Positions 2,027-40,606 of a DNA stretch of 64,000 bases are shown piece after piece. Location: the NCBI GenBank assembly GCA_963675665.1, contig OY776510.1:4928001-4992000 (forward strand). The letters are read 5' to 3'. The notes beneath the pieces were generated by a model, which worked only from the letters and a program-made list of their open reading frames with translations, was not told the origin of the DNA and searched no databases. Both the position numbers and the translations under genes were made by a program. Position 1 is the first letter of the stretch, and the number at the start of each line of letters is the position of its first letter. Origin of the DNA: Spirochaetia bacterium (GTDB lineage Bacteria; Spirochaetota; Spirochaetia; UBA9216).

Positions 2027-2169
2027 CTCCTATAAAAAGTTTCCGCATGGATGCGGGTTTTAAGAGGTGAAGTAGTAAATCTAAACTGCGTAGCAGTTTA
2101 AACTGCATTGCAGTTTAGATTTACTACTTCAAAATGATAAAATAACATGGAAGTTATTTTATCATTCCT
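2027..2169 (-). repeat. Short multi-hairpin element with IS110-like ends (candidate MITE), copy A, in tandem with IS copy 1
   Basis: On the minus strand it begins AGGAATGATAAAA (same as the IS left end) and ends ACTTTTTATAGGAG (same as the IS right end); three hairpins, two with (A/T)TCCAT loops. Confidence 0.75.
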
Positions 2170-2226
2170 CCTATAAGATTTTTTGCCAAAATTCTGAAAT
2201 ACAGCTTCCAGGGCAGTTTATTAACA

Positions 2227-2255
2227 GATCAAGCTGCGTAAAAAGCAGCTTGATC
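2227..2255 (-). terminator. Hairpin downstream of abfD
   Basis: GATCAAGCTGC-gtaaaaa-GCAGCTTGATC, perfect 11-bp stem; weak U-tract. Confidence 0.5.
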
Positions 2256-2268
2256 ATTCCGTTTATTT

Positions 2269-3732
2269 TCAATCCTTTATGCCGGCGAGATCTTTTGCAT
2301 ACTGTTTCTTTCGCTGAACATCTGCCTGACGCGAGATCATTATACGCTGGGCCTGGGGCGAGCCGGCACCGTGCATTGATTCGGTGAGATAGCCTACAGC
2401 AGCTCTTCCCATTGTCAGGTTTTCAATAAGACGAAGAAGTTTAAGCCTGTCTTTTGTTTCGACGCCCTCAACTCCGCCGAGAAATTTTTTGACCATTTCA
2501 GCAGTTTCCGGATTAGCAAGGTCTTTTGCATTCGGGGCCGTTACCATCAGACCGCCTGCAATATCCTGAAGAAGACGCGCAATCTCATAAGGGAAACGGG
2601 TAACGTTCTGCTTGCAGACATTGGCCAGCAGCAAATCGATCAGATAGTTTCCGGATTTGGTCTTCTGACCGAGCCAGCAGCATGCTACTGAACTTGACCA
2701 TATTGTTTCATTGAGATGGTTCATTTCAACAATCTTGTCTTTAACATGTGAAGCTCTTGCACAGCCGTTGTATTCCGCAATCAGCTGCGCAGCGCCGATA
2801 GCAACATCGCCTACGCCTGTTTTACATGCATAACTCGAGCGATGATAGCCGGCAAATCTTTCAACCAGCATATTTGTAAAATCATATTCGCCGTCCATGA
2901 AGATCTTTTCATTCGGAACAAAAACCCTGTCGAAAACCATCAGGGCTTCCTGTCCTCCGAAGTTGGGACTTCCGGCATCCATGTTCTCTCCATCCGGATC
3001 TTCAAGAAGTCTTGTATCACAGGACTGGCGGCCGTAAATATAAGTAATCCCTGGGTCGTCAGATTCAACAACACAGCAGACTGCGAAGTCTTTATCCTCT
3101 TCGGTCATTGTAACTGTAGGCATAATCAGGGCCTGGTGCGAGTTGATACAGCCAGTCTGATGGGTCTTGGCGCCGCTTATTACAATACCGTCGTCGCGTC
3201 TTTCAACAACATGCACATATACATCGGGGTCAGGACACTGATGAGGCCTTTTGCTTCGGTCGCCCTTCGGATCTGTCATACAACCGTCTACAACAAGATC
3301 CTTTTCTTCCACCTCAAGCATGTATTTCTTGAATCTTTCATGATAGTCTGTTCCGTATTTCTCATCCATTTCATAAGTTGTAGAGAAAGTTGCATTGAAC
3401 GCATCCATACCTACACAGCGCTGAAAACATGTGCCGCATTTCTGGCCGAGAAGTCTCTGCATCCCTACTTTCTTGTACAGCTCCTCAGGACTCTGGTGAA
3501 TATGACAAAACCTGTTTATTCTTTTGCCTGTGAATGAAGATATTTCGGTCAGATCATCTCTGTATTTTGAACCTTCCTCTGCAAGCTCATAAGTAAGTGC
3601 AATCGAATTGATAGAAGCTGCAATGATCGGGTGATCATACGGATTCTCAAGTTTTTCGCCGGCCATATATACATTCAATGGTCTTCTGTTTCTCAGGCTT
3701 GCGCGGTATTCCTTACCGGTCATCAATCCCAT
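2269..3732 (-). CDS. abfD: 4-hydroxybutyryl-CoA dehydratase/vinylacetyl-CoA isomerase
   Basis: CGTCFQRCVGMD Fe-S motif, MTDPKGDRS, ESMHGAGSPQAQR; start reassigned to ATG 3732 after GGAGG. Confidence 0.92.
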   Translation of the reverse strand: MGLMTGKEYRASLRNRRPLNVYMAGEKLENPYDHPIIAASINSIALTYELAEEGSKYRDDLTEISSFTGKRINRFCHIHQSPEELYKKVGMQRLLGQKCGTCFQRCVGMDAFNATFSTTYEMDEKYGTDYHERFKKYMLEVEEKDLVVDGCMTDPKGDRSKRPHQCPDPDVYVHVVERRDDGIVISGAKTHQTGCINSHQALIMPTVTMTEEDKDFAVCCVVESDDPGITYIYGRQSCDTRLLEDPDGENMDAGSPNFGGQEALMVFDRVFVPNEKIFMDGEYDFTNMLVERFAGYHRSSYACKTGVGDVAIGAAQLIAEYNGCARASHVKDKIVEMNHLNETIWSSSVACCWLGQKTKSGNYLIDLLLANVCKQNVTRFPYEIARLLQDIAGGLMVTAPNAKDLANPETAEMVKKFLGGVEGVETKDRLKLLRLIENLTMGRAAVGYLTESMHGAGSPQAQRIMISRQADVQRKKQYAKDLAGIKD

Positions 3733-3799
3733 ATTTTTCCTCCCGGCGCCGTATTCCGGTGCCAATTACAATAATTTTTATATAAAGGGCATAATCCCC

Positions 3800-4459
3800 T
3801 TAATATTCTATTCTGACGGTCCTGATAGTGTGTTCATCAAGATCATAAAAATATGCAAGATGCCTGTTTATAAGAGCAATCACTCCGTCGGTGTCGCGTT
3901 CTTTTAGCTTGTCTATCATGTCAAAATGAAGTTTTATCATATTCAGACTCAAATCGGAGTCGACATAATAAACAAACTGCATCAGCCTGACTTTCAGATA
4001 AAGGTCTTCCATAATTTTACACAGGTTCTCGTTTTTTCCGATTATGGCCAGGCCTAAATGAAACTCGCATTCAAGACGAATCCAGTTGAAAATATCGCCG
4101 TCTTTGGCGGCCTGATAACAGGCGTCGGCAACTTTTCTCAATTCGTCGATTTCAGCATTGTTTCCGAAACGTACTGCAAGCTGGACGGCCAGGGTATCAA
4201 GGGCTATTCTTGTAAGCCCCAGGTCTGTCTTGGCTCTCCTGTCAAAAGTTACGACCTCCGCGCTGCGGTGAGGATAAAGTTTAACTATCCCCTCTTTGGC
4301 CAGGCGCTGAACAGCTTCGGTTACAGGCGTACGGCTGACGCCGAGTTTTTTTGACAGGGCGTCAACTGCCAGTTTATCCCCGCAGGCAATATCCTGCCTT
4401 AAAATCATGTCCGTGATCTGTCTGTAAACTGTTTCTCCGAGCATCTGCCGATCTGCCAT
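3800..4459 (-). CDS. GntR-family (FCD) transcriptional regulator
   Basis: LGVSRTPVTEA winged HTH plus FCD domain (FH...N...H...H). Confidence 0.9.
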   Translation of the reverse strand: MADRQMLGETVYRQITDMILRQDIACGDKLAVDALSKKLGVSRTPVTEAVQRLAKEGIVKLYPHRSAEVVTFDRRAKTDLGLTRIALDTLAVQLAVRFGNNAEIDELRKVADACYQAAKDGDIFNWIRLECEFHLGLAIIGKNENLCKIMEDLYLKVRLMQFVYYVDSDLSLNMIKLHFDMIDKLKERDTDGVIALINRHLAYFYDLDEHTIRTVRIEY

Positions 4460-4473
4460 GAAATTTCACACCT

Positions 4474-4539
4474 TTGCATGTATTTTTACAGATTGCATGC
4501 AATCTTATTACATATTATACGATCCTGCGTTTTTGTCAA
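4474..4539 (-). promoter_or_regulatory. Promoter of the GntR gene with a palindromic operator
   Basis: Minus-strand TTGACA (4534-4539) followed by TATAATAT; perfect 16-bp palindrome AGATTGCATGCAATCT at 4490-4505 and a partial site TTGCATGTA at 4474-4482. Confidence 0.55.
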
Positions 4540-4540
4540 G

Positions 4541-4577
4541 AAAAAAGAGGGCTGATTAGTAAATCAGCCCTCTTTTT
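4541..4577. terminator. Rho-independent terminator after gabT
   Basis: AAAAAAGAGGGCTGATT-agta-AATCAGCCCTCTTTTT. Confidence 0.85.
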
Positions 4578-4593
4578 AAACAGGTAGAGGATT

Positions 4594-5859
4594 TTATTTT
4601 AGAACTTTCTTCAACGCCTTACCAAATCTTGAAAGGCCGATAGTCATTTCGTCTTCGCTTATTACCAGAGGCGGAATCCACCTGATAATATTTCCGAAGG
4701 TTCCGCATCCGAGCATAAGCATATTCTCTTCAAGCGCCGCGGCAATTACCGCTTTGGCGGTTTCAGCATCGGGCTGTCCGTTTTTCATAAATTCTGTTGC
4801 CACCATGCATCCGCGTCCGCGAACATCGCCGATAACCGGATACTGTTTCTGAAGTTCCCGAAGGCCTTTCATAAGCTGCTCTCCGCGTGCCGCTGCATTT
4901 TCAGCAAGCTTTTCTTCCTTCATTACCTTAACAGTAGCAGCTGCAGCTGCGCATGCCATGGTATTGCCGCTGTAGGTACCGCCATGGGTTCCGGCCCTCC
5001 AGTTTTCCTGTAGCGTACGTTTATACGCCAGGCCGGAAATAGGGATTCCTGAACCCAGGCCCTTGGCCATTGTCATAATATCAGGAAGAACATTCTCATG
5101 CTGAATTGCAAAAAACTTTCCGGTACGACAAAATCCCGACTGCACTTCATCGGCTATCATCATTATACCGTGCTCATCGCAGATCTCCCGAACTGCCTGC
5201 AGGAAGCCTGCCGGCGGCACTACATATCCGCCCTCGCCAAGCAGAGGTTCAATAATTATTGCTGCTGTCTCGCTGGGCTTTGTCTGCCCGAGAAGGGTTC
5301 TTTTCAGTTCCTTAATTGCAAAGGCTTTTGTTGTTTCATCATCCCAGCCGTAGTAAAACGAATACGGATACGGAGAAACAAATATTCCCGCAGGCAGGGG
5401 CATATAACCTTCCCGGTAAACGGTCTTGCTTGTCGTCATTGCCATTGTAAGATGTGTCCGGCCGTGAAAACTTCCGTTAAAAACAATTACATTCTGCCTT
5501 CCGGTAGCATGCTTTGCCAGTTTAACCGCGGCTTCAACCGCTTCAGCTCCGCTGCTTGCAAAGAAGAAAGTATCAAGCCCCGAAGGCACAACCGTTTTAA
5601 GCTCTTCAACCAAATCGACCATGGGCTGATGATAGACAATGTTGAACTGACCAAACAGAAGCTTGTCAGCCTGCTTCTTTATTGCTTCCACAACTTTCGG
5701 GTGACAGTGCCCGGTATTTGTTACACCTATGCCGCTGGTAAAATCAAGATATTTATTCCCTTGTTTATCATAAAACCAGCAGCCTTCACCACGTTCGACC
5801 ATTATATTTGTCGAATGCGTCCATACCGATGATATTTCCTTAATTTCCTGAGGATTCAT
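4594..5859 (-). CDS. gabT: 4-aminobutyrate aminotransferase (class III PLP enzyme)
   Basis: SGAEAVEAAVK, FHGRT, EPLLGEGG, DEVQSGFCRTG, MAKGLG, GGTYSGN; next to abfD. Confidence 0.82.
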   Translation of the reverse strand: MNPQEIKEISSVWTHSTNIMVERGEGCWFYDKQGNKYLDFTSGIGVTNTGHCHPKVVEAIKKQADKLLFGQFNIVYHQPMVDLVEELKTVVPSGLDTFFFASSGAEAVEAAVKLAKHATGRQNVIVFNGSFHGRTHLTMAMTTSKTVYREGYMPLPAGIFVSPYPYSFYYGWDDETTKAFAIKELKRTLLGQTKPSETAAIIIEPLLGEGGYVVPPAGFLQAVREICDEHGIMMIADEVQSGFCRTGKFFAIQHENVLPDIMTMAKGLGSGIPISGLAYKRTLQENWRAGTHGGTYSGNTMACAAAAATVKVMKEEKLAENAAARGEQLMKGLRELQKQYPVIGDVRGRGCMVATEFMKNGQPDAETAKAVIAAALEENMLMLGCGTFGNIIRWIPPLVISEDEMTIGLSRFGKALKKVLK

Positions 5860-5944
5860 GGTGCTCTCCTAAATTCAAAAATATTAATAATATTATGAAG
5901 AGTACCACATTCCGGATAAACACGGCTATGTTTTATTTATATCA

Positions 5945-8383
5945 TTATTCTGACAGACAAAGCTCAGAGGCTTTTTTTACAGCGGCGACACCGTCGGCAG
6001 CGTATTCAGCGCCGATTGATTCGGCCCATTCACGGGTAACAACAGCGCCTCCGGCGATAATCCGGCATTTAAGCCCCCTGACTTTAACAAGCTCAATAAC
6101 CTCGGGCATACGGATCATGGTTGTGGTCATCAGGGCCGACAGCCCGATAAGATCAGCCCTGTTTTTTTCAGCCGCATCAACTATTTCTTCTGCCGCAACA
6201 TCCTTGCCCAAATCTATTACATCAAACCCGTAATTGCGAAGCATCAGAACTACAATATTCTTGCCGATATCATGAATATCACCCTTAACTGTTGCAAAAA
6301 CCAGGGTCCCCTTCTTTTTAACGTCTCCCGCCGCCTTGAGCAGAGGTTCAATTACGGAAAAACCCTTTTCCATTGTTTCGGCGCTTGCTATCAGCTGCGG
6401 CAGAAAATACCGTTTTTCATCATAGTATTCGCCTACTTTCATGATAGACGGGATCATAATATCCTTCAGGAGGCTTGACGGCTGGTACCCTGCCTCAAGC
6501 GCTTTACGGCACAGGTCTTCGATATCTTCCCTGCGCCCTTCTATAACAGCTTTTGATAATAATTCATCAAGGCCCATCTCCGCTTCCGGTCGAACCTTTA
6601 CGGGAGGCGCCTTTACTGCTGATGTGCTGCTGAATTTATCTATATATGCAAGCGAATCCCGGTCACGTCCCGTCAGTACATTTGCCGCAGCCCTGGTATT
6701 CATCAGAAGCTCATGCGAAGGGTTGGCAATTGCCCATGTCAGTCCTGCCCCTGCCGCCATTGCAAAAAAAGCCGAATTAATCCAGCCGCGTTCCGGCAGC
6801 CCGAACGACACATTGGAAAGGCCCAGTACGGTGCCGAACCCCTGTGTGGCCGCCCAATGCACTGTTTTAAGCGTTTCAGCAGCAGCCTGCTGATTGCTGG
6901 ATACGGTCATAACCAGTCCGTCGACAATCAGATCGCTGCGTCTGTAGCCCAACTTCTCAGCCTCTTTCCAGACTTCCTGAATAAGCTCTATCCGACGTTC
7001 CGCCTTGTCCGGCAGTTCATTATCAGCTATCGGCAGCACAACAAGCATTGCCCCGTAACCGGCTGCCGCAGGCAGAAGTTTAGCCAGCTTTTCCTTCTCG
7101 GCCGATATCGAATTGATCAGCGTTCTTCCGGGGTAATACCTTACTGCCGCCTCAACAACATCCGGATCAGATGAATCGATTACAAGCGGAAGATGCACCG
7201 CCGGAACCACCGTTGAGATAATGTCGAGTATCGTTTTCTTTTCATCGATACCCGGCATTCCGGCATTAATGTCCAGAAGGTCGGCCCCGCCTTCCGCCTG
7301 CTCCCGGGCAAGCTTTCGGATATAGCCCATATTTCCGTTCCTCAATTCTTCCTGCAGCCTTTTCTTGCCTGTAGGATTTATACGCTCGCCGATTATGCGT
7401 ATCGGACCGTCGGCGCCGGTCTGAAGAAGATCAGTAGCGGAGCAGAGACATGCCGCATCCGGCGCCTTGCGCGGAACAGGTTTTAGCCCTTTCAGACTTG
7501 AAGCAAGCATCCTGATATGTCCGGGTCCGGTACCGCAGCATCCGCCCATGATGTTTACCCCGGCTTCGACAAAAGCCTCGCCGAACGAACCGAAGTCGTT
7601 CGCCTGCATTGGAAAAACAGTCCTGCCGTCTTTTATAACCGGCATTCCGGCATTGGGTTTCGCCATAACGGGAATATCAACTACGCTGCATATCCGTCTC
7701 AGGTTCTTCAGCATCTCGGCCGGACCGGTTGAACAGTTAAGCCCTACAGCGTCGGCGCCCAGGCTTTGAAGAATAACCGCCATTGCCTCGGGAGTTGTTC
7801 CATTGAGGCTTCGGCCGGATTCGTCAAAGGTCATGGATACCATTTTAAAACTGTCGGTCAGCTCTTTAACAGCAAGCAAAGCTGCCCGGCATTCCTGGAT
7901 ATCGATCTGCGTTTCAATAACAAAAAGATCAACTCCGCCTTCAAGAAGACCCTTTACCTGTCTTTTATAACCGTTTACGGCATCTTCAAAATCAAGATCC
8001 CCAAAGGGCATGATAAATCTTCCGGAGGGGCCAATATCTCCGGCAATAAAAGGTCTGCGTCCGCCCTCTTCAGCGATGGACTCCGCTGTTTTTACCGCGT
8101 TCTCCGCGATAACCCGGTTTACTTCTTCCGTCCGCTCAAGCGCCCCGAATTCTTCAAGCTTCCAGGGCGATCCGCCGAAGGTGCATGTATAAAGGATATC
8201 CGAACCGCTTTCCACGTAGGATCTGTATATTTCAGCCGAAACCTCCGGGTTCTCACATGACCACAGTTCAGGGCTGACGCCCGCCGGAAGACCGCGTTTC
8301 TGCATTTCTGTTCCGGTAGCCCCGTCGAGTATAACTATCCTGCTTTTAATCAGGTCTTTAATCTTCTGTTTTGTCTCGTTCAT
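5945..8383 (-). CDS. metH: B12-dependent methionine synthase (Hcy-binding, pterin-binding, cap and B12 domains; no fused reactivation domain)
   Basis: LDGATGT, GLNCS, GGCCGT, IGERINPTG, GDIHDIGKNIV, SALMTTT. Confidence 0.9.
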   Translation of the reverse strand: MNETKQKIKDLIKSRIVILDGATGTEMQKRGLPAGVSPELWSCENPEVSAEIYRSYVESGSDILYTCTFGGSPWKLEEFGALERTEEVNRVIAENAVKTAESIAEEGGRRPFIAGDIGPSGRFIMPFGDLDFEDAVNGYKRQVKGLLEGGVDLFVIETQIDIQECRAALLAVKELTDSFKMVSMTFDESGRSLNGTTPEAMAVILQSLGADAVGLNCSTGPAEMLKNLRRICSVVDIPVMAKPNAGMPVIKDGRTVFPMQANDFGSFGEAFVEAGVNIMGGCCGTGPGHIRMLASSLKGLKPVPRKAPDAACLCSATDLLQTGADGPIRIIGERINPTGKKRLQEELRNGNMGYIRKLAREQAEGGADLLDINAGMPGIDEKKTILDIISTVVPAVHLPLVIDSSDPDVVEAAVRYYPGRTLINSISAEKEKLAKLLPAAAGYGAMLVVLPIADNELPDKAERRIELIQEVWKEAEKLGYRRSDLIVDGLVMTVSSNQQAAAETLKTVHWAATQGFGTVLGLSNVSFGLPERGWINSAFFAMAAGAGLTWAIANPSHELLMNTRAAANVLTGRDRDSLAYIDKFSSTSAVKAPPVKVRPEAEMGLDELLSKAVIEGRREDIEDLCRKALEAGYQPSSLLKDIMIPSIMKVGEYYDEKRYFLPQLIASAETMEKGFSVIEPLLKAAGDVKKKGTLVFATVKGDIHDIGKNIVVLMLRNYGFDVIDLGKDVAAEEIVDAAEKNRADLIGLSALMTTTMIRMPEVIELVKVRGLKCRIIAGGAVVTREWAESIGAEYAADGVAAVKKASELCLSE

Positions 8384-8388
8384 AAAAA

Positions 8389-8508
8389 CTCCTATAGAAA
8401 CTCGACTTTAATCGTAAGCCATGGATGGCCGGTTGCAGAAGTGAAGTTTTCAAACAAAGTTTGGAAACTTCAAAATGTTAAAAATACATGGATGTATTTT
8501 TAACATTC
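8389..8508 (-). repeat. Multi-hairpin element copy B, directly upstream of metH
   Basis: GAATGTTAAAAATAC-atccat-GTATTTTTAACATT, TTGAAGTT...AACTTCAC, GCC-atccat-GGC, ending TTTCTATAGGAG before the ATG. Confidence 0.7.
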
Positions 8509-9102
8509 AGCTGAAGGCAGTATCCCGTAAATTGCTGTCACCGATTTCTCGGGCATCAGCAGACAGGATTCGTTTATCCTGACGCCGATGGCCTCAAGCC
8601 CCAGCATCCGGTATATATCCTTCTGAAACCTGATGTCAAAATCTCCGTAACCTGCCGAGAAACGTCTTGAAGTCAACGCCCTTGCTTCACGTACAAGTTC
8701 ACGGGAAAAAATCTCGGCAAGCCGGTTCAGTCCTTCGTCAACTATCTCGCTTGCCGCAGCATCAGTAACGACCGCTTCGGTCAGTTTCCCTGCTTCTTTA
8801 TACCGCTCAATTTCATCAGTAACGGAACTGCCGCCGGTTATGCCCATAATCAGCAGTTGGTCCGATTCAGCCAGAAAATTGTTGAGTTTGCTGCTGTTAA
8901 ATATTTCAGCTATCGACGTTTCAACTCTAAGCGAAACGGCTTTCAGTTCAATCAGATCAGCGGTTTTCTCTATCAGGGAATCTACTTCAGCCATTGTTTC
9001 TGCCGGTATCCGGCTTGATCTGCTGATATATCCAAGCCGTTTAAGTATTCTGCTGCGCGGTACTTTAACCGGCAGATATGGAAAGCGTCTGACATCTGGC
9101 AT
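8500..9102 (-). CDS. Stand-alone methionine synthase reactivation (SAM-binding) domain
   Basis: RRFSAGYGDF...LMPEKSVTAIYG; adjacent to metH. Confidence 0.85.
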   Translation of the reverse strand: MPDVRRFPYLPVKVPRSRILKRLGYISRSSRIPAETMAEVDSLIEKTADLIELKAVSLRVETSIAEIFNSSKLNNFLAESDQLLIMGITGGSSVTDEIERYKEAGKLTEAVVTDAAASEIVDEGLNRLAEIFSRELVREARALTSRRFSAGYGDFDIRFQKDIYRMLGLEAIGVRINESCLLMPEKSVTAIYGILPSAEC

Positions 9103-9210
9103 TGTTTGAATATAACAATTTTATTAAAACTTGGCACTAGTCTTTCAGCCGTACTTGAATATTATCTGATTATCGTGTTAATTTCTGTATATTCAAGTGA
9201 CAAGACACTT

Positions 9211-9342
9211 AATGATGACAGGCGCGCTACACCTGTCATCATTTTGAAGTTTCTGGAGCTACGCACCAGAAACTTCACTCTGAGATTTCGGCGGATAAGC
9301 TGTTTTTCAGCATCCATCACACAAAAAATTTTTCGAGAGGAG
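9211..9342 (+). repeat. Multi-hairpin element copy C, upstream of the solute symporter
   Basis: AATGATGACAGG...CCTGTCATCATT, TTGAAGTTTCT...AGAAACTTCAC, CATCCAT, ending TTTTCGAGAGGAG before GTG 9349. Confidence 0.62.
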
Positions 9343-9348
9343 ATCAAA

Positions 9349-10704
9349 GTGACGAGTTTTATAATTCTACTGCTTCTTTACGTTGCCGCAGGCACAGGAA
9401 TCGCGATCTATGCAGGACGCAACAGGGGATCCGATAACCAGGAATCTTATTTTATCGGCGGCCGGGGGATAAGCTGGATTGTCAGCGCACTCACCTATGC
9501 AGCAACCACCTACTCTTCGTTTATGATGGTAGGACTGGTAGGGTTATCCTACTCGACAGGAATAGGCGCGATGATCTTTGAAATGACATATCTTGCTTCA
9601 ACGATAGTTCTGCTGTCGATATACGGAAGAAAAATCTGGAAAATGAGCAGGGATGAAAATATGGTTTCGCCGATGGAGCTGTTCTCGTCGCGTTTCGGCA
9701 AAATTACCGGAACTGCCGGCGCGCTCATTTCAGCTGCGGCCCTGATTCCGTACACTGCGGCACAGGTAATCGGCCTGTCCATCATTTTCAGCAATTTCGG
9801 AATCAGCTACGGCACCGGGGTCGTTATTGCCGCTGTTCTTATATGTATCTGGTCTCTTATCGGGGGCCTCAGGGGCGTTGCGCTGACCGATGCCGTGCAG
9901 GGACTTTTCATGATAGCGGTTGCCGTTATCGGCGTGCTCTGGGCCGGAAACAGGTTCGGCGGAATAGAGACATCAACCTTTCCGAACAAGGTCTGGACTC
10001 CCGTGTTCTTTATCAACCTGACCCTTCCGTGGGCTTTTTTCGCACTGACCAACCCCCAGGTTGTACAGCGGCTTTTTATTGTGAAAGACACAAAGGGCCT
10101 CAGAAAGATGATTATCCTGTTTGCCGTTGTCGGCGCGGTTTACACCGCGATTACCTGCCTGTTGGGATTTTCAGCCAAATTCGGCACGCTTAACGGTACT
10201 TTTGCAGAGGTTACCAGCCGCGACAATGTAATTATCGGGATTCTCCAGCTGATGGGCAAAGGACTTGGGCTTGCAATAGCTCTGAGTATAATCTTTGCGA
10301 GCATTTCGACATCGAACTCAATAATCCTGACGCTCTCTTCAATGTTCACCCGCGATGTTGTCCGCGACACCAAAAAGACATGGTACGGCCGGGTTTTTAT
10401 CGTGTTGATAACAATTCTGGTAGCACTTTTCGCATTCAGAAAAACCTCGTATATCGTTGAGCTTTCGGTTTCAACATCGAGGATTCTGATGTGCTTTCTT
10501 CCGCTGTTTTTCGACATCTTTCATTTTAAAAAGGGCGGCCGAACAACAGGGCTTCTTACCCTGCTTGGAGGGGCCGCGGCCGCAATTGTTTTCGGTAAAA
10601 TGGGACTGGCGCTCAGCTCGGTATGGACCCTTGCAGCAGCATTCGTGTTCTATTTCATCGGCGTATTGATTGACAGTAAAACAAGGGTAAAAACCTCAAT
10701 TTAA
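9349..10704 (+). CDS. Sodium:solute symporter (SSS/PanF/PutP-like)
   Basis: YFIGGRG, ATTYSSFMMVG, GGLRGVALTDAVQG; many TM helices; start reassigned to in-frame GTG after GAGGAG. Confidence 0.88.
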   Translation: MTSFIILLLLYVAAGTGIAIYAGRNRGSDNQESYFIGGRGISWIVSALTYAATTYSSFMMVGLVGLSYSTGIGAMIFEMTYLASTIVLLSIYGRKIWKMSRDENMVSPMELFSSRFGKITGTAGALISAAALIPYTAAQVIGLSIIFSNFGISYGTGVVIAAVLICIWSLIGGLRGVALTDAVQGLFMIAVAVIGVLWAGNRFGGIETSTFPNKVWTPVFFINLTLPWAFFALTNPQVVQRLFIVKDTKGLRKMIILFAVVGAVYTAITCLLGFSAKFGTLNGTFAEVTSRDNVIIGILQLMGKGLGLAIALSIIFASISTSNSIILTLSSMFTRDVVRDTKKTWYGRVFIVLITILVALFAFRKTSYIVELSVSTSRILMCFLPLFFDIFHFKKGGRTTGLLTLLGGAAAAIVFGKMGLALSSVWTLAAAFVFYFIGVLIDSKTRVKTSI

Positions 10705-22510: not shown

Positions 22511-22616
22511 ATTTTATCTCCTGTTTTTTAATAAAACATATCAGCCGATGAAAAACAAGAGCTCCGTTTTTTATTTCTTTATTTTACACATTGTATTATA
22601 TTTATTATATATAGAG

Positions 22617-22697
22617 AGGGAATTATGAAAAATCTTCCATGAGTTTTCATAATTAACTACACTGATCTGCCGCTTATGGCGGAATATATTATAGGAG
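22617..22697 (+). repeat. Degenerate multi-hairpin element copy D, in tandem with IS copy 2
   Basis: AATTATGAAAAATC-ttccat-GAGTTTTCATAATT, AACTACAC, TCTGCC-gcttat-GGCGGA, ending TTATAGGAG. Confidence 0.5.
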
Positions 22698-22722
22698 GAA
22701 TGATAAAAAGTCTTCATGAGCT

Positions 22723-22875
22723 GGTGAATTGATATACTGCCTTAACTTTAATTGAGGCAGTAAGGTTACTGTTCGACATTTTTACTGGTCCGCGAGACCG
22801 TTTAGGAGATTGAAGAGCCGTAACCGAAACATTCAATGGTCTGCGAGACCGGATAGGAGAATGGAACAATTCACC
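22723..22875 (+). ncRNA. Putative bridge RNA with target- and donor-binding loops
   Basis: Target loop CATTTTTACT (22777-22786), hairpin, TAGGAG (22803-22808); donor loop CATTC (22830-22834), hairpin, ATAGGAG (22853-22859). Confidence 0.72.
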
Positions 22876-22910
22876 GTATAGGCACTGCTTCAAACTATTG
22901 GAGATAGAAC

Positions 22911-24023
22911 ATGAAGATGAGTATTGGCGTGGATCTTCACAAAACGCAGTTTACAGTATGCCTTTTAAGTGAAGACCGAAAAATTGATCAATTGGGAATG
23001 TATCCGACCAGCGGAAATGGTTATGGAGCATTTCTGAAAATGCTGGATGAATATTGTGAAGAGGAATATGAGTTGAGAGCAGCGGTGGAAACAACCGGGA
23101 ATGCCCGTTATTTCCGCAATAAACTGTTAAAGGCTGGAGTCGAAGTGGTTGTAGTGAATACTTTGAAATTCAAGGTAGTGAATGAATCTGTAAAAAAGAC
23201 AGACAAACATGATGCACGCACCCTGGCGGAGTTTCTTGAGAAAGACATGCTGCCTGAATCGATATTATGTTCCCAAGAGAGTGAGGATATTCGAAGGGTG
23301 CTGAAATCCAGGTCGATACTGGTAAAATCTGTTGTGTCGTTAAAGAACCAGGTGCATGGCTTATTACTTGGTTATGGAATAGAGACCAAACGCGGACAGC
23401 TGCAGAGTAAAAAAGAAAGGCAGCGAATCCTGAACGGTCTCGAGGACCACGACTTTTACGGAAGCGCTGCCAAAACGGTAATACCGTTACTGGATATGAT
23501 AGATAATCAGGCATCGCAAGTCAAGCAGCTTGAAAAGGTTTTGGCTGAGCTTGTGGAGGACGATGAAGATGTTGAGCTTCTGCAGACAATACCAGGCGTG
23601 GGTCTAATAACAGCAGCAACAGTAAGAGCCTATACAGACGATATCGGCAGATATGATAGTGCGAAGAAATATGCAGCAAACGCCGGGCTTGTGCCATGGG
23701 TGCAGAACTCAAATATGACAATACATCATGGACATATAACAAAGCGTGGGCCTGTAGAACTGAGGACAGCCTTCGTACAGATGGTGATGGGAATGGTTCG
23801 TATGCAAAAGAAGACCGGGACGTACCGAATAATGACGAAGTATGCAGCGATGAAGAAGCAGAAAGGCTCGGGTAAGAGTGTAATAGCTGCCGCCCGCAAG
23901 ATGAGCACTTTGGTATATACAATTTTAAAAACCAGAGAGCCGTTTGATCCGATGAAAATGGCTTTTAGAAAAGAATACAGGGAAATGCAGGCAGCAGCAT
24001 GGGAAGCTGTAATGGTCGGTTGA
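22911..24023 (+). CDS. IS110-family DEDD recombinase/transposase
   Basis: Protein identical to 701..1813. Confidence 0.96.
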   Translation: MKMSIGVDLHKTQFTVCLLSEDRKIDQLGMYPTSGNGYGAFLKMLDEYCEEEYELRAAVETTGNARYFRNKLLKAGVEVVVVNTLKFKVVNESVKKTDKHDARTLAEFLEKDMLPESILCSQESEDIRRVLKSRSILVKSVVSLKNQVHGLLLGYGIETKRGQLQSKKERQRILNGLEDHDFYGSAAKTVIPLLDMIDNQASQVKQLEKVLAELVEDDEDVELLQTIPGVGLITAATVRAYTDDIGRYDSAKKYAANAGLVPWVQNSNMTIHHGHITKRGPVELRTAFVQMVMGMVRMQKKTGTYRIMTKYAAMKKQKGSGKSVIAAARKMSTLVYTILKTREPFDPMKMAFRKEYREMQAAAWEAVMVG

Positions 24024-24084
24024 TATCCGACTAGATCATAAGCTTATATTTTTAGCTTGTGGTTGACTTTTTATAGGAGCAAAA

Positions 24085-24702
24085 ATGCAGGTGTCTTTTA
24101 AAAAGATACTCCTGAGTATGCTGCTGTTTGCTGCGGGAAGTGCAACTTTTTTATCCGGAGACGATACTACGAATAATTACCTTTCATTATACGATTTCAA
24201 TAGCATGAATAACAATTCACAGTACGAATGGCAGGATTTTACTGATCAGGTAATGGGAGGGAAATCGGAAATATCCACATCCCTGCTTCAGGAGGACGGG
24301 GAGTTTTTTCTGCGGATGGAAGGCGAAGTGTCTTTAAAAAACAACGGAGGCTTTATTCAGACCCGGCTTCAACTGAGCAGGGGATTTGGAACCCTGGATG
24401 CTTCTGATTATGACGGAATCAGATTGCTGGTAAGGGGAATAGAGTCCGGCTACTACCTGTTTTTCAGAACAACAAGCACCATTCTGCCTTGGCTGTATTA
24501 CTCGGCCGGTATCGATGTAAAACCCGGATGGCAGGTAATCGACATACCATGGTCGGCAGTAACCAAAGGAGCTTACGGTTCAATGGGAAATTTCAAAACA
24601 TCAAAACTGAAAAGTATAGCTGTTGTTGCTTTCGGACGGGAATTTACAGCTCAGATTGATCTTAAACGAATAGGTTTATATAAAAAGGATCCTGAACTTT
24701 AA
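24085..24702 (+). CDS. CIA30-family protein with a signal peptide
   Basis: TDQVMGGKS...VSLKNNGGF...YDGIRL. Confidence 0.85.
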   Translation: MQVSFKKILLSMLLFAAGSATFLSGDDTTNNYLSLYDFNSMNNNSQYEWQDFTDQVMGGKSEISTSLLQEDGEFFLRMEGEVSLKNNGGFIQTRLQLSRGFGTLDASDYDGIRLLVRGIESGYYLFFRTTSTILPWLYYSAGIDVKPGWQVIDIPWSAVTKGAYGSMGNFKTSKLKSIAVVAFGREFTAQIDLKRIGLYKKDPEL

Positions 24703-34927: not shown

Positions 34928-34939
34928 AGGACAATTTGA

Positions 34940-35560
34940 ATGACGGATGATCAAATAAAAAAGTTGTTCCACGATTTAAAAAACGATCTTGCTGCAATGA
35001 CGGCGCTTCCGAACCTGCACCGGATTTACAAAAACAATATTACATCGGAGGATATGCTTGATCGTCTCACTGAAAGACAACTTGTAATTTCAACAGCATA
35101 TGAAAAACTTTACCAGGGCGGAGATTTTGAATATCTGAATCTTCCTGAATTTATAGACTCTCTTTTATCAAAACAGAACAGATTTTTTTTATCGCATCAT
35201 ACCGGGGTAAAATTGTACAAATCGGTGGCATCTATAAAACTGCCTGTAAAAAAAGCCATAGCGCTCTGCCAGATCCTGACTGAATTGCTGTCCAACTCAT
35301 ACCGTCATGCTTTCGTAAATTCCGAAGGTGAAAAAACCATTAAACTGGATATTTCTTCAGGAAATGACGGAAAACTGAACCTGAAATACAGTGATAACGG
35401 GTGCGGTTTTTCTGAAGATTTTGAACCGGTAAAAGCACGGTCCCTGGGAATGCAGTTTATAATTTCACTGGCAAAACAGCTTGGGGCTAATATAGCGTTC
35501 AACACCGATACACTGACGCAGGGAATTGAGTTTTCTCTGGAATTGGATATGAATAATTGA
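34940..35560 (+). CDS. Sensor-less HisKA_2-like histidine kinase
   Basis: HDLKNDL H-box, ELLSNSYRHAF, DNGCG, SLGMQ. Confidence 0.8.
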   Translation: MTDDQIKKLFHDLKNDLAAMTALPNLHRIYKNNITSEDMLDRLTERQLVISTAYEKLYQGGDFEYLNLPEFIDSLLSKQNRFFLSHHTGVKLYKSVASIKLPVKKAIALCQILTELLSNSYRHAFVNSEGEKTIKLDISSGNDGKLNLKYSDNGCGFSEDFEPVKARSLGMQFIISLAKQLGANIAFNTDTLTQGIEFSLELDMNN

Positions 35561-35631
35561 TCACGGCGGGATTCGAACCCACGGCCTCCTCCTCCGGAGG
35601 GAGGCGCTCTATCCAGCTGAGCTACGTGACC
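35558..35631 (-). tRNA. tRNA-Arg(CCG)
   Basis: GGTCACGTAGCTCAGCTGGATAGAGCGCCTCC-CTCCGGA-GGAGGAGGCCGTGGGTTCGAATCCCGCCGTGATCA; CCA not encoded. Confidence 0.95.
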
Positions 35632-35678: not shown

Positions 35679-35709
35679 CAGGTGCCGCAACAGAACCGGC
35701 AGGCTCTGC

Positions 35710-35932
35710 GTTTCCATAATTTTCACAGTCATAATTCGGAATGAAACCGGTAAGGATCTCTTATAAACCGGGCAAGTGTGCAGCCCATGTTATGACTGAT
35801 AACATATGGCGCTGCCGGGGGCCCTGACGGCGGCGAAAAACATCTGTGTCTTCACAGCAGTTTTTCGCCGACATCGGGGTCAGCGGGTACTGTGTTTCCA
35901 TAATTTTCACAGTCATAATTCGGAATGGAAAC
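35710..35932. repeat. Two 38/39-bp direct repeats enclosing a hairpin-rich 146-bp segment
   Basis: GTTTCCATAATTTTCACAGTCATAATTCGGAATG(G)AAAC at 35710-35747 and 35894-35932. Confidence 0.85.
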
Positions 35933-35953
35933 AAATCTGCCGATATTAATGAC

Positions 35954-36514
35954 ATGAAAATTAAATACAACGCACCATTATCACTAACCTTTGCAATAAT
36001 AGCTTCTCTTCTTGTGCTTATAGATCAAATCAGCGGGGCACACCTGATTCCGACTTACTTTATGGTTCCGGGACGGGGAATGTTCAATACAGGAGATCCT
36101 CTCGACTGGATGACACTTTTTACCCATACCCTCGGCCACTCCAGTTGGAACCACCTGCTCAGCAATATGGCGCTTCTGTTGCTTCTTGGGCCCATACTCG
36201 AAGAAAAATACGGCTCGGTTACGCTTTTTGTGATGGTCTTTATTACCGCCATAGCAACAGGACTTCTGAACGCTTTTTTATTTCCGACAGCGCTGCTCGG
36301 TGCAAGCGGAATTGTTTTCATGATGATTCTGCTTACATCGTTTACAAACAACCGCAACGGAGAGATTCCGTTAAGCTTCATCATGATTCTGATACTTTAC
36401 CTGGCTGCCGAGATAGTAAATGCTTTCAGCTACGACGATATATCCCAGTTTGCACATATTGCAGGCGGTGTCTGCGGGAGTCTTTTTGGATTTCTGCGCC
36501 CGAGAAAGAGATAG
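35954..36514 (+). CDS. Rhomboid-family intramembrane serine protease
   Basis: H.SW.HLLSNM, GASG, AHIAGG; start reassigned. Confidence 0.9.
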   Translation: MKIKYNAPLSLTFAIIASLLVLIDQISGAHLIPTYFMVPGRGMFNTGDPLDWMTLFTHTLGHSSWNHLLSNMALLLLLGPILEEKYGSVTLFVMVFITAIATGLLNAFLFPTALLGASGIVFMMILLTSFTNNRNGEIPLSFIMILILYLAAEIVNAFSYDDISQFAHIAGGVCGSLFGFLRPRKR

Positions 36515-36559
36515 ATTTGCAAAGTTGAATATCTTGCTCTTTTCTGCTACTCTGTCGAA

Positions 36560-37627
36560 ATGATAGAGAAACTTGAAGAAATAGAAGCACGCTTTAACAA
36601 ACTCGAAACCCTGATAAGCGATCCCGATATAATGAAGGACATGAAACGCTACAAGGAGGTCGCACAGGAGCATTCGCATCTGGTTGATGTTGTAGCCGAA
36701 ATAAGGAATTACAAGAGGATAGCCGCCGAAATTGAAGACGCCAGGCTCATGATTGAAAACGAAACAGATTCAGACATGAAAGAGATGGCGCATGACGAAC
36801 TTAAAGGGCTGGAAAATTCCTTCAGGAAAAGCGAGTCCAACCTTAAAACGCTGCTTATACCAAAAGATCCGATGGACAGTAAAAATATAATCATGGAAAT
36901 CAGGGCGGGTACCGGAGGAGACGAAGCCGCTCTTTTCGCATCGGATCTTTTCCGAATGTACTCCAGGCTGGCCGAAGCCCGGAAATGGAAGGTAGAAATC
37001 ATGTCGAGCAATGAAATCAACCTCGGCGGCTTCAAGGAAATTGCGTTCTCTATCAGCGGTAAAAGTGTTTACGGAGATCTCAAATACGAAAGCGGTGTAC
37101 ATCGTGTGCAGAGAGTTCCGGCAACAGAGTCAGGCGGCAGGGTGCATACCTCGGCAGTAACCGTTGCGGTCCTTCCTGAAGCTGAAGATACCGATATCGA
37201 AATCAAGCAGGAAGAACTGAAAATTGATGTTTACCGATCTTCAGGCCCCGGCGGGCAGAGCGTTAACACAACCGATTCGGCAGTGCGGATAACACACATC
37301 CCTACCGGAGTTGTTGTAACCTGCCAGGATGAAAAATCCCAGATAAAGAACAAAGCCAAGGCGCTTAGAGTATTGAGAGCAAGGCTGTTTGAGGCTGAAG
37401 AAGCCCGTAAGGCGAAAGAGCGGGCCGATGAACGAAAAAGTCAGGTCGGCTCAGGCGATCGTTCCGAAAGGATACGGACCTATAATTTCCCCCAGAACCG
37501 TCTGACGGACCACCGGATAAACCTTACGCTGTATAAGCTGGAATCGGTTATGGCCGGAAGTCTTGATGAAGTTATCGAAGCTCTGAAACTCAGCGACAGG
37601 GAAGAATACCTTAAGGCCAACCAGTAG
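36560..37627 (+). CDS. prfA: Peptide chain release factor 1
   Basis: VPATESGGR (PxT motif), GPGGQSVN. Confidence 0.97.
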   Translation: MIEKLEEIEARFNKLETLISDPDIMKDMKRYKEVAQEHSHLVDVVAEIRNYKRIAAEIEDARLMIENETDSDMKEMAHDELKGLENSFRKSESNLKTLLIPKDPMDSKNIIMEIRAGTGGDEAALFASDLFRMYSRLAEARKWKVEIMSSNEINLGGFKEIAFSISGKSVYGDLKYESGVHRVQRVPATESGGRVHTSAVTVAVLPEAEDTDIEIKQEELKIDVYRSSGPGGQSVNTTDSAVRITHIPTGVVVTCQDEKSQIKNKAKALRVLRARLFEAEEARKAKERADERKSQVGSGDRSERIRTYNFPQNRLTDHRINLTLYKLESVMAGSLDEVIEALKLSDREEYLKANQ

Positions 37628-37636
37628 AAAACCATA

Positions 37637-38500
37637 ATGACTTACAGACAGGCAATGACTGAGGCTGCAGACAGACTTCGGTCGGCCGAAATAAGATTCT
37701 GCGAAACTCCCCTTCTTGATGCCTCCGTTCTTCTTGCATTTGCAGCAGGAAAAACACGTGAAAATTTATTTGCTTCTTATCCGGATGAAATACCTGCTGA
37801 AATCCTTAAACAATTCAACAGCCTGCTGGCCAAACGGCTTGAGGGCATGCCGGTCTCCTATATCCGTAATATAAAAGAATTCTTTGGACGGGATTTTTAT
37901 GTTGATGAATCAGTACTGGTTCCCAGACCCGACACCGAAATTCTAGTCGAGAAGGCTATTGAACTTATTGACGCAAATAATACCGAAAAGGTTCTCGACC
38001 TGTGCACAGGTAGCGGGTGTATAGCAGTATCGCTCAAGCTCGAACGAAGTATTATTGATATAACCGCATCTGATATTTCAGCAGAAGCGTTGAAAACAGC
38101 AAAACTTAATGCTGAAAATCACGGAGCAGATGTAGAATTTACCCAAAGCGATCTTTTTGAAAAGATAAACGGCCGTTTCGATATGATCGTCACAAATCCT
38201 CCATACCTGACATCTGCCGATACCGCTGAAATGCTCGGAACCGGCTGGCCGGAACCTGCAATTGCACTGAACGGCGGTGACGACGGACTGGATTTTATCA
38301 GGATAATAATCAATTCTTCACTGGATTATCTCAAAAATAATGGCTATCTTTTAATTGAGGCAGGCCCGAATCAGGCCGTGCCCATATCAAAACTTCTTGA
38401 TTCGGAAGGATTCGTTGATATCGGGATAACCAAAGACCTCGCGGGAAGAAACAGGGTAACAAGCGGCAGGATAAGTGGAACATACGATTACGAAATTTGA
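37637..38500 (+). CDS. prmC: Release factor glutamine methyltransferase
   Basis: VLVPRPDTE, DLCTGSG, NPPY; follows prfA. Confidence 0.95.
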   Translation: MTYRQAMTEAADRLRSAEIRFCETPLLDASVLLAFAAGKTRENLFASYPDEIPAEILKQFNSLLAKRLEGMPVSYIRNIKEFFGRDFYVDESVLVPRPDTEILVEKAIELIDANNTEKVLDLCTGSGCIAVSLKLERSIIDITASDISAEALKTAKLNAENHGADVEFTQSDLFEKINGRFDMIVTNPPYLTSADTAEMLGTGWPEPAIALNGGDDGLDFIRIIINSSLDYLKNNGYLLIEAGPNQAVPISKLLDSEGFVDIGITKDLAGRNRVTSGRISGTYDYEI

Positions 38501-40475
38501 AAATAAATTAACCGCATACAGGCCGACCGAGAAAGCCAAAATTATGAAAGCGGCCCTCTGGGCGGAAAATAAACACGGCGATCAGAAACGTGCCAGCGGC
38601 GAACCTTTTTTCATCCACCCCCTCAAGGTTGCCGATTTTCTTGTGGAATTCGGAATGGACCATGAAACAATCATTGCCGCACTGCTTCATGACGTACTTG
38701 AAGATACCGGGACTTCCGAAAATGAAATGCGAAAGGATTTCGGCCGTAACATAGTTGCCCTTGTCGACGGCGTAACAAAAATTTCCATAGTCAAAGCGAA
38801 AAGCAAAAGCATTCAGGAAACTGAAACTATGCGTAAAATGCTTATCGCAATGACGAAAGATATAAGGGTAATAATAATAAAACTGGCCGACAAGCTGCAT
38901 AACATGCAGACGCTTCAGTATCTGCCTGAAAAAAAGCGTAAAAGCATAGCAAACGAATGCCTGGAAATATACGCGCCTCTTGCCGGACGACTTGGAATTT
39001 CGGGACTGAAAACGGATCTGGAAGATCTTGCCCTGAAACATCTTAAACCTGATGTATACAAGCAGCTTTCCGGAACCATACATCTTGCACAGCATGAAAA
39101 TGTCAATTACCTTCGAAAGGTAGAACGCACCATTCTGCGCGAAGCACATAATGAAGGCATACAGATTGAAGTAAGCACCCGGGCAAAGCATATTTATTCA
39201 GTTTACCGAAAAATGAAAAAACGCAAGAAAGCTGTCGATGAAATTAACGACCTTCTGGGCATCAGAATCCTCTGCAACACGCCCACAGAGTGCTATACAA
39301 TACTCGGTGTTGTCCATCGTCTTTGGCCCCCTATTGAAAACAGGTTCAAGGATTACATTGCAATGCCCAAATCGAACCAGTACCAGAGCCTTCACACAAC
39401 GGTAATGTGCTATGAAGGGCGCCGTCTTGAGGTCCAAATCAGGACCTACGCAATGCATTACACCGCGGAATACGGAGTAGCCGCCCACTGGATATATAAA
39501 AACACCCACAAGGGTGAAAAACTGAAACCGGAAGACCTGGCTATTATAAACAAGCTGAAACGTTGGAATGAACAGCATGTTCCCCAGGGCGAATTCTGGG
39601 AAGAAATAAAAAGCGAATTGCTTCGCGATTCAATTTATGTTTTTACCCCCAAGGGTCATATTGTTGAACTGGCAAAAGACTCAACCCCGGTAGACTTTGC
39701 ATATCATATCCACACAGAGATCGGCAACCACTGTATCGGCGCCAAAACAGACGGCTCAATTATTCCGCTGAACACGCCGCTGCGCAATACCCAGGTCGTT
39801 GAAGTAATGACTTCTCCCCGCGGAAAACCCAATATAAACTGGCTGAGGTTTGCAAAAACCTCAAAGGCAAAAAATAAAATCCGGCAGTGGATTAACAAGC
39901 ATAATGAAGACCTTATTATCGAAAAGAACATTATTGCCAAAAACAAGCCGGCGCCTCCTAGGGATCTTCCGGTTGCCGAAAAAAAACCTGCCGGAGATCC
40001 CGGTGAAGTAATTAAAAGGGTTATAGATTCCGCCCGGGTACGTTTCCGCATCGGCGATGAAAAAAACATGATGATCAGCCTTGCCCATTGCTGCAACCCT
40101 GTTACCGGCGACAATATTATCGGCTATGTATCGCGCGGACGCGGAATTATTGTTCACAAAAGAGACTGTCCGAATTTAAAGCATATAGAGGAATTCAAGG
40201 AGCGAAGCATTGAAGTTGAATGGGAGGCCGTATCTCCGACGGCATCACGCCGCTTTGAGGTGACTTCAAAACTGACGAATGATTTATTTTCTGAAATTGA
40301 AGGATCAATCCGCAAATTCGGAGGGCATCTTATTGAAGGAAAACTTGAGGAAACCGACAAGGGAAACCTCAAGGGCAGCTTTACAATGGAAATGAACCGA
40401 ACGATTGATTATAAACAGATTTTAAAGAGTATCCGAATGATTCCTTCAGTTCTCAACATCAGGCCTCTTTCCTGA
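38475..40475 (+). CDS. rel: Bifunctional (p)ppGpp synthetase/hydrolase (long RSH)
   Basis: HD motif LLHDVLED, KDYIAMPK.NQYQSLH, TGS, CC zinc finger, ACT. Confidence 0.93.
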   Translation: MEHTITKFENKLTAYRPTEKAKIMKAALWAENKHGDQKRASGEPFFIHPLKVADFLVEFGMDHETIIAALLHDVLEDTGTSENEMRKDFGRNIVALVDGVTKISIVKAKSKSIQETETMRKMLIAMTKDIRVIIIKLADKLHNMQTLQYLPEKKRKSIANECLEIYAPLAGRLGISGLKTDLEDLALKHLKPDVYKQLSGTIHLAQHENVNYLRKVERTILREAHNEGIQIEVSTRAKHIYSVYRKMKKRKKAVDEINDLLGIRILCNTPTECYTILGVVHRLWPPIENRFKDYIAMPKSNQYQSLHTTVMCYEGRRLEVQIRTYAMHYTAEYGVAAHWIYKNTHKGEKLKPEDLAIINKLKRWNEQHVPQGEFWEEIKSELLRDSIYVFTPKGHIVELAKDSTPVDFAYHIHTEIGNHCIGAKTDGSIIPLNTPLRNTQVVEVMTSPRGKPNINWLRFAKTSKAKNKIRQWINKHNEDLIIEKNIIAKNKPAPPRDLPVAEKKPAGDPGEVIKRVIDSARVRFRIGDEKNMMISLAHCCNPVTGDNIIGYVSRGRGIIVHKRDCPNLKHIEEFKERSIEVEWEAVSPTASRRFEVTSKLTNDLFSEIEGSIRKFGGHLIEGKLEETDKGNLKGSFTMEMNRTIDYKQILKSIRMIPSVLNIRPLS

Positions 40476-40479
40476 ATGG

Positions 40480-40606
40480 AGGAATGATAAAATTACATCC
40501 GTGTAATTTTATCATTTTGAAGTTTGAAAATTAAACTGCGTCACAGTTTAATTTTCAAACTTCACATCTTCCATCTGCCTTCCATGGCAGGAAGTTTTTA
40601 TAGGAG
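40480..40606 (+). repeat. Multi-hairpin element copy E with IS110-like ends, upstream of trmJ
   Basis: AG-GAATGATAAAATTAC-atccgt-GTAATTTTATCATT, TTGAAGTTTGAAAA...TTTTCAAACTTCAC, CTGCC-ttccat-GGCAG, TTTTTATAGG-AG. Confidence 0.78.

Follow-up and report, generated by a model that had tools for sequence, protein, structure and literature searches.

The DNA examined here (the window, 64,000 nucleotides long) is taken from a Spirochaetia bacterium (assembly GCA_963675665.1, contig OY776510.1, positions 4,928,001 to 4,992,000 of the forward strand) and carries five copies, A to E, of a repeat made of three hairpins (P1, P2 and P3) that is found upstream of start codons, as well as two copies of an insertion sequence (IS) of the IS110 family, referred to as IS-A in the following. 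The repeat was scored with two covariance models: R1, which includes a tail with the Shine-Dalgarno (SD) sequence, and R2, which comprises P1-P3 only. In the order of the window, the repeat copies and IS copies are:

645..2026, minus strand: IS-A copy 1, between copy A and the start codon at 638
2012..2174, minus strand: copy A, full element (R1 100.7 bits; R2 match)
8374..8515, minus strand: copy B, full element (R1 104.7 bits; R2 match)
9203..9355, plus strand: copy C, diverged element (R1 54.4 bits; R2 43.6 bits)
22613..22712, plus strand: copy D, degenerate element (R1 49.0 bits; missed by R2)
22698..24079, plus strand: IS-A copy 2, an IS110-family element of 1382 bp including one AGGAG
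40475..40621, plus strand: copy E, full element (R1 121.6 bits; R2 match)

An initial annotation, made from the letters of the window, had placed five copies here and described a common plan (P1, a TT linker, P2 with TGAAGT..ACTTCA, P3 with a WTCCAT loop, a T-rich stretch, AGGAG and a start codon); both the positions and the plan proved correct, and R1 scores all five copies. Copy E is located between the stop codon of a relA/spoT-like gene and a SpoU-methylase gene. Its borders are GGAG/GAATGATAAAA on the 5' side (a slash marks the border) and TTTTTATAGGAG on the 3' side, followed by ATTTC-ATG, and its excision in silico leaves GGAG-ATTTC-ATG, as the annotation had stated; P3 together with the T run is terminator-like. 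Copy A has a long P2 with AAACTGC..GCAGTTT repeats, and in copy D P1 and P3 are kept and P2 is lost (by eye). The annotation was also right that copies A and E have IS-like ends on both sides and that both IS copies of the window sit at the 3' end of a family member: IS-A copy 1 is joined to the 3' AGGAG of copy A and IS-A copy 2 to that of copy D, so that in these two cases the IS intervenes before the start codon. Copy B lies immediately 5' of a metH-like gene (start codon 8383); its ends are only roughly IS-like (GAATGTTAAAA ... TTTCTATAGGAG) and its 5' border reads CAGCTGAATGTTAAAA, without GGAG. Copy C, which lies upstream of the GTG start of a sodium:solute symporter gene, has a P1 interior with the arms ATGACAGG and CCTGTCAT, a decayed P3 and weak IS-like ends.

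The window contains only a small part of the family. Scanning the 5.15 Mb genome with R2 gave 94 matches, that is, at least 91 non-overlapping three-hairpin copies once three opposite-strand overlaps were removed, and scanning with R1 gave 99 matches at E<=0.01; these numbers are lower bounds, because each covariance search scored 150 of about 2,800 first-look candidates. The earlier figure of about five copies is therefore adequate for the window, but not for the genome with its ~91-99 copies, and the proposed extension of the scan to relatives recovered the family in the congeners as well. The seed set consisted of 35 clean genome copies that were chosen by a crude stem scanner demanding P1 and P2 stems, and was aligned with (A1) and without (A2) the SD tail; the initial regex and stem scanners were noisy and served for seed selection only. 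The family is modular: P2 or P1 is missing in some copies, and others have palindromes nested within P1 or AAACTGC..GCAGTTT units in tandem within P2. The nested palindromes found in some P1 stems are of the type AAAGTACTTCGTACTTT (genome positions 1148511, 2884866, 4787860 and 2714714) and resemble a small separate insertion. The elements have no open reading frame (ORF) of their own. Arrays of two to five elements, arranged head to tail and joined via a shared (A/C)AGGAG, occur at genome positions 1652318-1652898, 2973043-2973373, 836219-836460, 4576514-4576759 and 4279323-4279577; neighbours within an array are 90-99% identical, and dispersed copies at most 92%.

We then counted the genetic context of the R2 matches, a count that is not biased towards the SD because R2 does not contain one. 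A start was defined as an SD-like word plus the start codon of an ORF of 60 aa or more, and the limit for its distance from P3 was 45 nt. Downstream of P3 we found:

64 of 91 copies: such a start within 45 nt
10 of 91 copies: another copy of the element
5 of 91 copies: the IS
7 of 91 copies: such a start at a distance of 47-152 nt
5 of 91 copies: no such start by this test

On the opposite, antisense side of the element an SD plus start was present in 1/91 copies, and at random genome positions in 4.2%. The association with ribosome-binding sites that had been noted in the window thus extends genome-wide, and the orientation of the copies is not random (64/91 sense versus 1/91 antisense). Moreover, 41 of the 91 copies (about 10 of which are inner members of arrays) are preceded by GGAG within 8 nt upstream of P1, as compared to 1/91 in a window 40-50 nt upstream and 1.4% of random 10-mers, and the element is thus enclosed between two SD copies. 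The downstream genes that were looked at (a few named, the others by eye) are of many kinds.

The borders of the element were also examined by comparison between species. Forty element loci of three congeners were set against this genome: 19 were filled in both, 7 were absent here (seen without an outgroup, and thus either an insertion in the relative or a precise deletion here) and 14 had no two-sided flank match. At four of the absent loci (L063, L088, L090 and L095) the flanks are homologous on both sides and the borders are clean, the arrangement being a single GGAG-spacer-ATG here and GGAG-element-GGAG-spacer-ATG in the relative; L085 is near-clean, and L076 and L094 are blurred at the 5' side. 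Empty sites, which the initial annotation had proposed to look for in the rel-trmJ and metH intergenic regions, were thus found at other loci.

A subset of the elements also shares its ends with IS-A. Both GGAG/GAATG and ATAGGAG are present in 14/91 copies, A and E among them; in the best cases, 15-23 nt are shared with the left end of the IS and 14 nt with its right end. The exact 15-mer GGAGGAATGATAAAA occurs 34 times in this genome (15 of these within IS copies), 9 times in congener G004 and twice in congener G001, 11 times in an Oceanispirochaeta metagenome-assembled genome (MAG; 10 IS loci fetched) and 9 times in a Syntrophales MAG (9 IS loci fetched), and the reversed 15-mer that was used as a control was absent (0) from every genome scanned. 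Landing site and orientation are the same for element and IS, as a start codon follows 5-7 nt after 15/15 IS copies.

The protein encoded by IS-A matches the Pfam domains DEDD_Tnp_IS110 and Transposase_20 (E-values 9.3e-18 and 1.4e-17), and the genome contains 15 copies of the IS that are 99.5-100% identical. All 15 have the structure ...AGGAG/GAATGATAAAAAGTC...TTGACTTTTTATAGGAG/N5-7-ATG, mostly with 6 nt between right end and ATG (12 copies), less often with 5 nt (two copies) or 7 nt (one copy); IS-A copy 2, for instance, has the left end GAATGATAAAAAGTCTTCATGAGC and the right end TTGACTTTTTATAGGAG, and the ATG of the host gene follows 5 nt on, at 24085. Since every copy is bordered by AGGAG and has an ATG 5-7 nt on, the IS is lodged within a ribosome-binding site and brings along a new AGGAG. 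An R1 match adjoins the left side of 6 of the 15 copies, and a seventh flank looks like a decayed copy by eye. When the IS ends are joined (22698-22712 with 24062-24079), a sigma-70-like promoter arises across the junction from TTGACT and TAAAAA at a spacing of 17 nt, and GACTTTTTAT of the right end is an inverted repeat of ATAAAAAGTC of the left end (both by eye). In contigs of the runs X1 and X3, window position 664 is joined to 1994, both inside IS-A copy 1 (1329 bases skipped, TAAACA at the join, depths of 7.9 and 5.1); with a shorter side of only 21 letters this join is too short to trust and may represent an assembly artefact or an internally deleted IS. A second IS110-family IS, with a 387-aa protein, is present in the window (53502-55004, minus strand) and in six more copies in the genome; it sits within another hairpin repeat (AACCTCTAAAAACCC..GGGTTTTTAGA/IS/GAGGTT), and one of its copies (genome 2621202-2622704) interrupts a nested palindrome in the P1 of an element.

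IS-A belongs to a wider clade with the same preference. Relatives of the transposase with 52-79% identity, recovered at 80 loci (clade loci L096-L175; hosts: Spirochaetota, Desulfobacterota, a Dehalococcoidales MAG, a Dysgonamonadaceae MAG and others), have retained both of its ends, GGAG/G(A/C)A(T/C)GATAAAAA and TTGACTTTTTATAGGAG, and land just 5' of start codons: GGAG precedes 51/57 visible left ends and a start codon is found 3-9 nt past 47/49 visible right ends. The 5' non-coding part of the IS contains two putative bridge-RNA loops:

22777..22812, plus strand: predicted loop 1, read as target-binding (CATTTTTACT - stem GGTCCGCGAGACC - GTTTAGGAGATTG)
22829..22864, plus strand: predicted loop 2, read as donor-binding (ACATTCAAT - stem GGTCTGCGAGACC - GGATAGGAGAATGG)

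Within the clade, the triplet before AGGAG in the 3' arm of loop 1 matches the triplet before AGGAG at the insertion site in 122/171 positions, as compared to 61.2 +/- 12.8 matches when the loop 1 guides are permuted among lineages (0/2000 permutations reach 122). The (A/G)ATAGGAG of loop 2 equals the right end of the IS in all 14 aligned relatives, and its 5' arm CATTC complements the left-end GAATG and reads CGTGC in the one relative with the left end GCACG. The predicted loops thus covary with both target and donor. In IS-A itself, 9 of the 15 insertion sites read TATAGGAG, the word of the IS's own right end (the donor), and only 3 read TTTAGGAG, the word of the target loop, so that most landings of the IS seem to be at donor-like sites. 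All 14 aligned 5' arms of loop 1 begin with CAT, the complement of ATG; this CAT could pair with the start codon, but the register misfits most sites. Pairing of a core dinucleotide with the right-hand guides, as in IS621, was sought, without a fitting candidate. Sequence alone does not place the crossover, which can fall at any point of AGGAG.

Taking together the anatomy of the elements, their context, the duplicated GGAG, the presence/absence with exact borders, the identity of the ends and the covariation of the guides, we lean, with moderate confidence, towards the view that the hairpin elements are old non-autonomous relatives of the SD-targeting IS110 clade that have been retained as 5' leaders. 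An IS of this clade probably once moved the elements, and we infer that it did so by means of its recombinase. The element, GAATGATAAAA...P1-P2-P3...TTTTATAGGAG, would enter just 3' of the AGGAG of a ribosome-binding site; the old AGGAG would stay at its 5' border, and the 3' AGGAG of the element would replace it at equal distance from the start codon. Translation signals would survive such an event because the new AGGAG takes over at the same spacing. A circular form of the subset with IS-like ends would carry the junction ATAGGAG/GAATG, as the joined ends of the element read, and this junction is complementary to the donor-binding loop 2 of the IS. The regenerated TTTATAGGAG would then constitute a new landing site, which would explain both the tandem arrays and the IS copies attached to the 3' ends of elements. 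The elements may have been retained because they are nearly neutral, or because they are useful as structured 5' or intercistronic leaders.

A number of observations weigh against this view. One or both IS-like ends are lacking in 77 of the 91 copies, the absence of seven elements from this genome can be read in two directions, as said above, and mobility does not account for the conserved P2 base or the WTCCAT loops, because an IS110 donor needs only ~20 bp. In the two MAGs with 9-10 related IS, the 15-mer is not in excess, and such passengers are therefore absent there. The IS-A transposase was not found outside this genome among 11 genomes of the family, and five congeners in which the IS was not found (four of them drafts of 320-480 or 40-50 contigs) contain 20-72 R2 matches each; R2 gave 1-9 matches in four of five other genomes of the family. 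In run X4 (organism B, related) the depth over IS-A copy 1 is 0. Another genus, with complete genomes of 2.7-2.8 Mb, has at least 24 matches per genome to the Rfam motif TD-2 (see below), with 21 and 11 R2 matches in the two genomes searched; no homologue of IS-A was found in four complete genomes of this genus, and none of five copies inspected there had GGAG borders. Lastly, dispersed elements are at most 92% identical (values of 93-99% are confined to tandem neighbours) and the IS copies 99.5-100%, and no recent spread driven by the IS is therefore seen. The idea that the resident IS mobilises the elements at present, which the initial annotation had entertained, is not supported. The hairpin module thus predates, and extends beyond, its link with IS-A; if the elements were moved by an IS110 enzyme, this came from an earlier member of the clade.

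The same observations are in line with a host-resident structured repeat (of TD-1/TD-2 type, REP-like) that spread otherwise and at whose TTTATAGGAG 3' ends the IS only lands, the likeness of its 5' end to the IS left end being a secondary or chance similarity of A-rich arms; we regard this as a possible but rather unlikely explanation. The family is wider and older than the IS, 19 of the 26 comparable loci are filled in both species at ~25% nucleotide divergence, and 6/15 IS copies lie at element 3' ends although elements precede a small share of the genes. In addition, the second IS110 member of this genome targets another hairpin repeat, and IS110 members that target REP sequences are known, as far as can be taken from the reference list of PMC11208160 and from the available part of the work on ISPpu9 (PMC12288879). 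However, a host repeat offers no mechanism for insertion in one orientation exactly after GGAG, and no Y1/RAYT gene was found in this genome and in four of five congeners. Nor does chance similarity fit well with a 5' identity of 15-23 nt that includes GGAG/GAATGATAAAA, with a 15-mer that occurs nine times in G004, where the IS was not found, and zero times in reverse, or with IS ends that are conserved across phyla and hence were not copied from the repeat of this genus. The initial annotation had left the choice between non-autonomous passengers and a host repeat that the IS targets, and both alternatives hold in part, because passenger-like features (no ORF, shared ends, same site and orientation, empty sites bordered by GGAG) are accompanied by a preference of the IS for element 3' ends (6/15).

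The claim that the stems differ between copies yet stay paired is borne out by alignment A2, in which 94.3% of the stem cells of the 35 copies are paired. Shuffles give 73.2%, and shifting the partners by 1-3 columns gives 43-52%. Because the seeds were picked for P1 and P2 stems, the paired share is an overestimate; the double changes and P3 are less influenced by this choice. There are 161 double changes versus 37.7 in shuffles (observed value reached by 0/500), and RNAalifold predicted 25 pairs for the 35-copy alignment, 22 of them with compensatory changes. Between orthologous copies, pairs were kept in 104 double changes and broken in 38, a comparison based on rough pairwise alignments and on minimum free energy structures that take in pairs outside P1-P3. 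These kept stems, together with the conserved WUCCAU loops of P1 and P3, the conserved base of P2 and the terminator-like P3 plus T run, would fit elements that are chiefly functional RNA leaders (acting on stability, processing, termination or translation), or antisense TD-2 small RNAs with AUGGA loops, with mobility being incidental. TD-1 was also judged to be 'usually in a 5' regulatory configuration' in the accessible text of Weinberg 2007 (PMC1950547). We nevertheless deem a chiefly regulatory role improbable as the full explanation. Among 891 stem cells (828 Watson-Crick), G:U pairs (12) are no commoner than A:C pairs (10), and without a G:U excess there is no sign of which strand would be the RNA; maintenance of palindromes at the level of DNA fits the stem pattern equally well. 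The orthologous copies are 49-80% identical, as compared to mostly 70-81% for long flank alignments of the same loci, which looks like turnover rather than conservation, and the downstream genes looked at are diverse by eye. Several orthologous P1 stems are almost wholly different yet perfectly paired, a pattern more suggestive of copies being replaced in situ, or of palindromes evolving fast, than of slow compensatory drift.

Insertion next to a fixed word also calls to mind transposition of single-stranded DNA, in which elements of the IS200/IS605 type insert 3' of a short word and carry subterminal hairpins. Here, a fixed short word precedes the element on the 5' side and is repeated at its end, and P1 and P3, which would serve as enzyme sites 3' of AGGAG, carry the same loop. 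Despite this resemblance, an IS200/IS605-type or RAYT mechanism appears very improbable to us, as the ends match an IS110 element instead and a search with PF01797 (Y1_Tnp, the Y1/RAYT transposase) gave no match in this complete genome and in the congeners G001, G002, G004 and G005. As a control, the same search gave matches in 6/14 control genomes, and a RAYT/IS200-type partner was rejected for these five genomes.

The family is already present in Rfam as TD-2/TD-1, described in 2007, which was overlooked in the initial annotation. Copy E matches TD-2 (RF03162) at 40479-40591 on the minus strand with 52.4 bits (gathering score 48.7), and 14 out of 20 other genome copies match at E<=0.01, 10 of them at or above 48.7, all on the strand opposite to the downstream gene. 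For copies A, B and C no match to an Rfam TD motif was obtained at E<=10. The Rfam scoring concerns TD-2 only, as clan competition (CL00124) masks TD-1. According to the part of Weinberg et al. 2007 (PMC1950547) available to us, TD-1 (28 copies) and TD-2 (36 copies) came from Treponema denticola alone, overlap partly as reverse complements and were left open as to function. The elements described here resemble TD-2 in having three hairpins in the order of the model with AUGGA-type first and third loops (AUGGAU on the TD-2 strand), and both motifs in being multi-copy repeats of spirochaetes with modular stems of variable length. They differ in that the TD-2 model describes the strand opposite to the gene sense, and in that copies are placed at an SD plus start codon with GGAG on both sides, a subset having IS110-like ends.

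Natural passengers of IS110 elements have a precedent in MITEPpu9/ssr9 of ISPpu9 from Pseudomonas putida, a natural MITE-like element (MITE, a miniature transposable element with inverted repeats; PMC12288879, in part). Like the elements here it is short and without transposase, its flanks resemble the left and right ends of an IS110 element, it occurs beside the IS and alone, and it is proposed to move with the transposase in trans; movement of mini-IS in trans is likewise found in print. MITEPpu9 has 8 copies, contains a small RNA gene and lands in REP sequences (same source), in contrast to the ~90 copies at SD sites reported here, in a family that is much older than the resident IS and that also occurs in genomes in which the IS was not found. 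Compared with REP/BIME and REPIN-RAYT systems, the family shares the many short palindromic intergenic copies, the long-lived, vertical inheritance, the compensatory stem changes and the role of IS110 target; it differs in the strict position and orientation with respect to start codons, in the GGAG borders and in the lack of a RAYT/Y1 gene in the genomes that were searched here.

IS-A differs from IS621 in that its left target TTTAGGAG and left donor ATAGGAG are nearly the same word and its right guides show no visible core-dinucleotide pairing. Its same-sense guide is on the 3' side of each loop, and that of IS621 is reportedly on the 5' side. With IS621/IS110 it shares the DEDD and Tnp domains, two internal loops within the 5' non-coding region, an arm in the same sense as the left side of target or donor, a second arm complementary to the right side, and guides that covary with the target (PMC11208160, as far as accessible). 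A preference for ribosome-binding sites may have parallels within the family. We know of no passenger family for IS900, IS901 and IS902, the IS110-family elements of Mycobacterium avium. These reportedly insert in one orientation between ribosome-binding site and start codon (Doran et al. 1997; Bull et al. 2000). The available part of PMC8141618 does not state such an insertion for IS900-type elements. In the open-access literature we found no paper that links the TD motifs to IS110 and none that describes a bridge RNA reading the SD. The apparent novelty lies in the pairing of a TD-2-type repeat that has SD borders and IS110-like ends with an IS clade whose guide reads the SD. Apart from the repeat family, the window contains an unrelated tRNA gene (35558-35631, minus strand, 66.5 bits).

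The TD-1/TD-2 motifs have been unexplained since 2007, and the data provide a testable account in which an IS110-type insertion takes place at the SD and the element restores the SD. They also point to a multi-phylum clade of bridge-recombinase IS with a target guide that reads the ribosome-binding site. Should the elements represent an ordinary REP-like repeat, they would add a case of such a repeat being targeted by an IS110 member. A natural passenger family, on the other hand, would show what a minimal natural donor looks like and how 5' leaders can be reshaped by RNA-guided recombinases without killing genes. More tentatively, and with considerable doubt, we propose that the TD-1/TD-2 motifs of spirochaetes are the natural cargo of a bridge recombinase, written into ribosome-binding sites by an SD-reading bridge RNA with the donor ATAGGAG/GAATG. 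If so, each cassette would bring a replacement SD together with a structured leader, and the IS110 clade would have installed regulatory leaders across a whole bacterial family.

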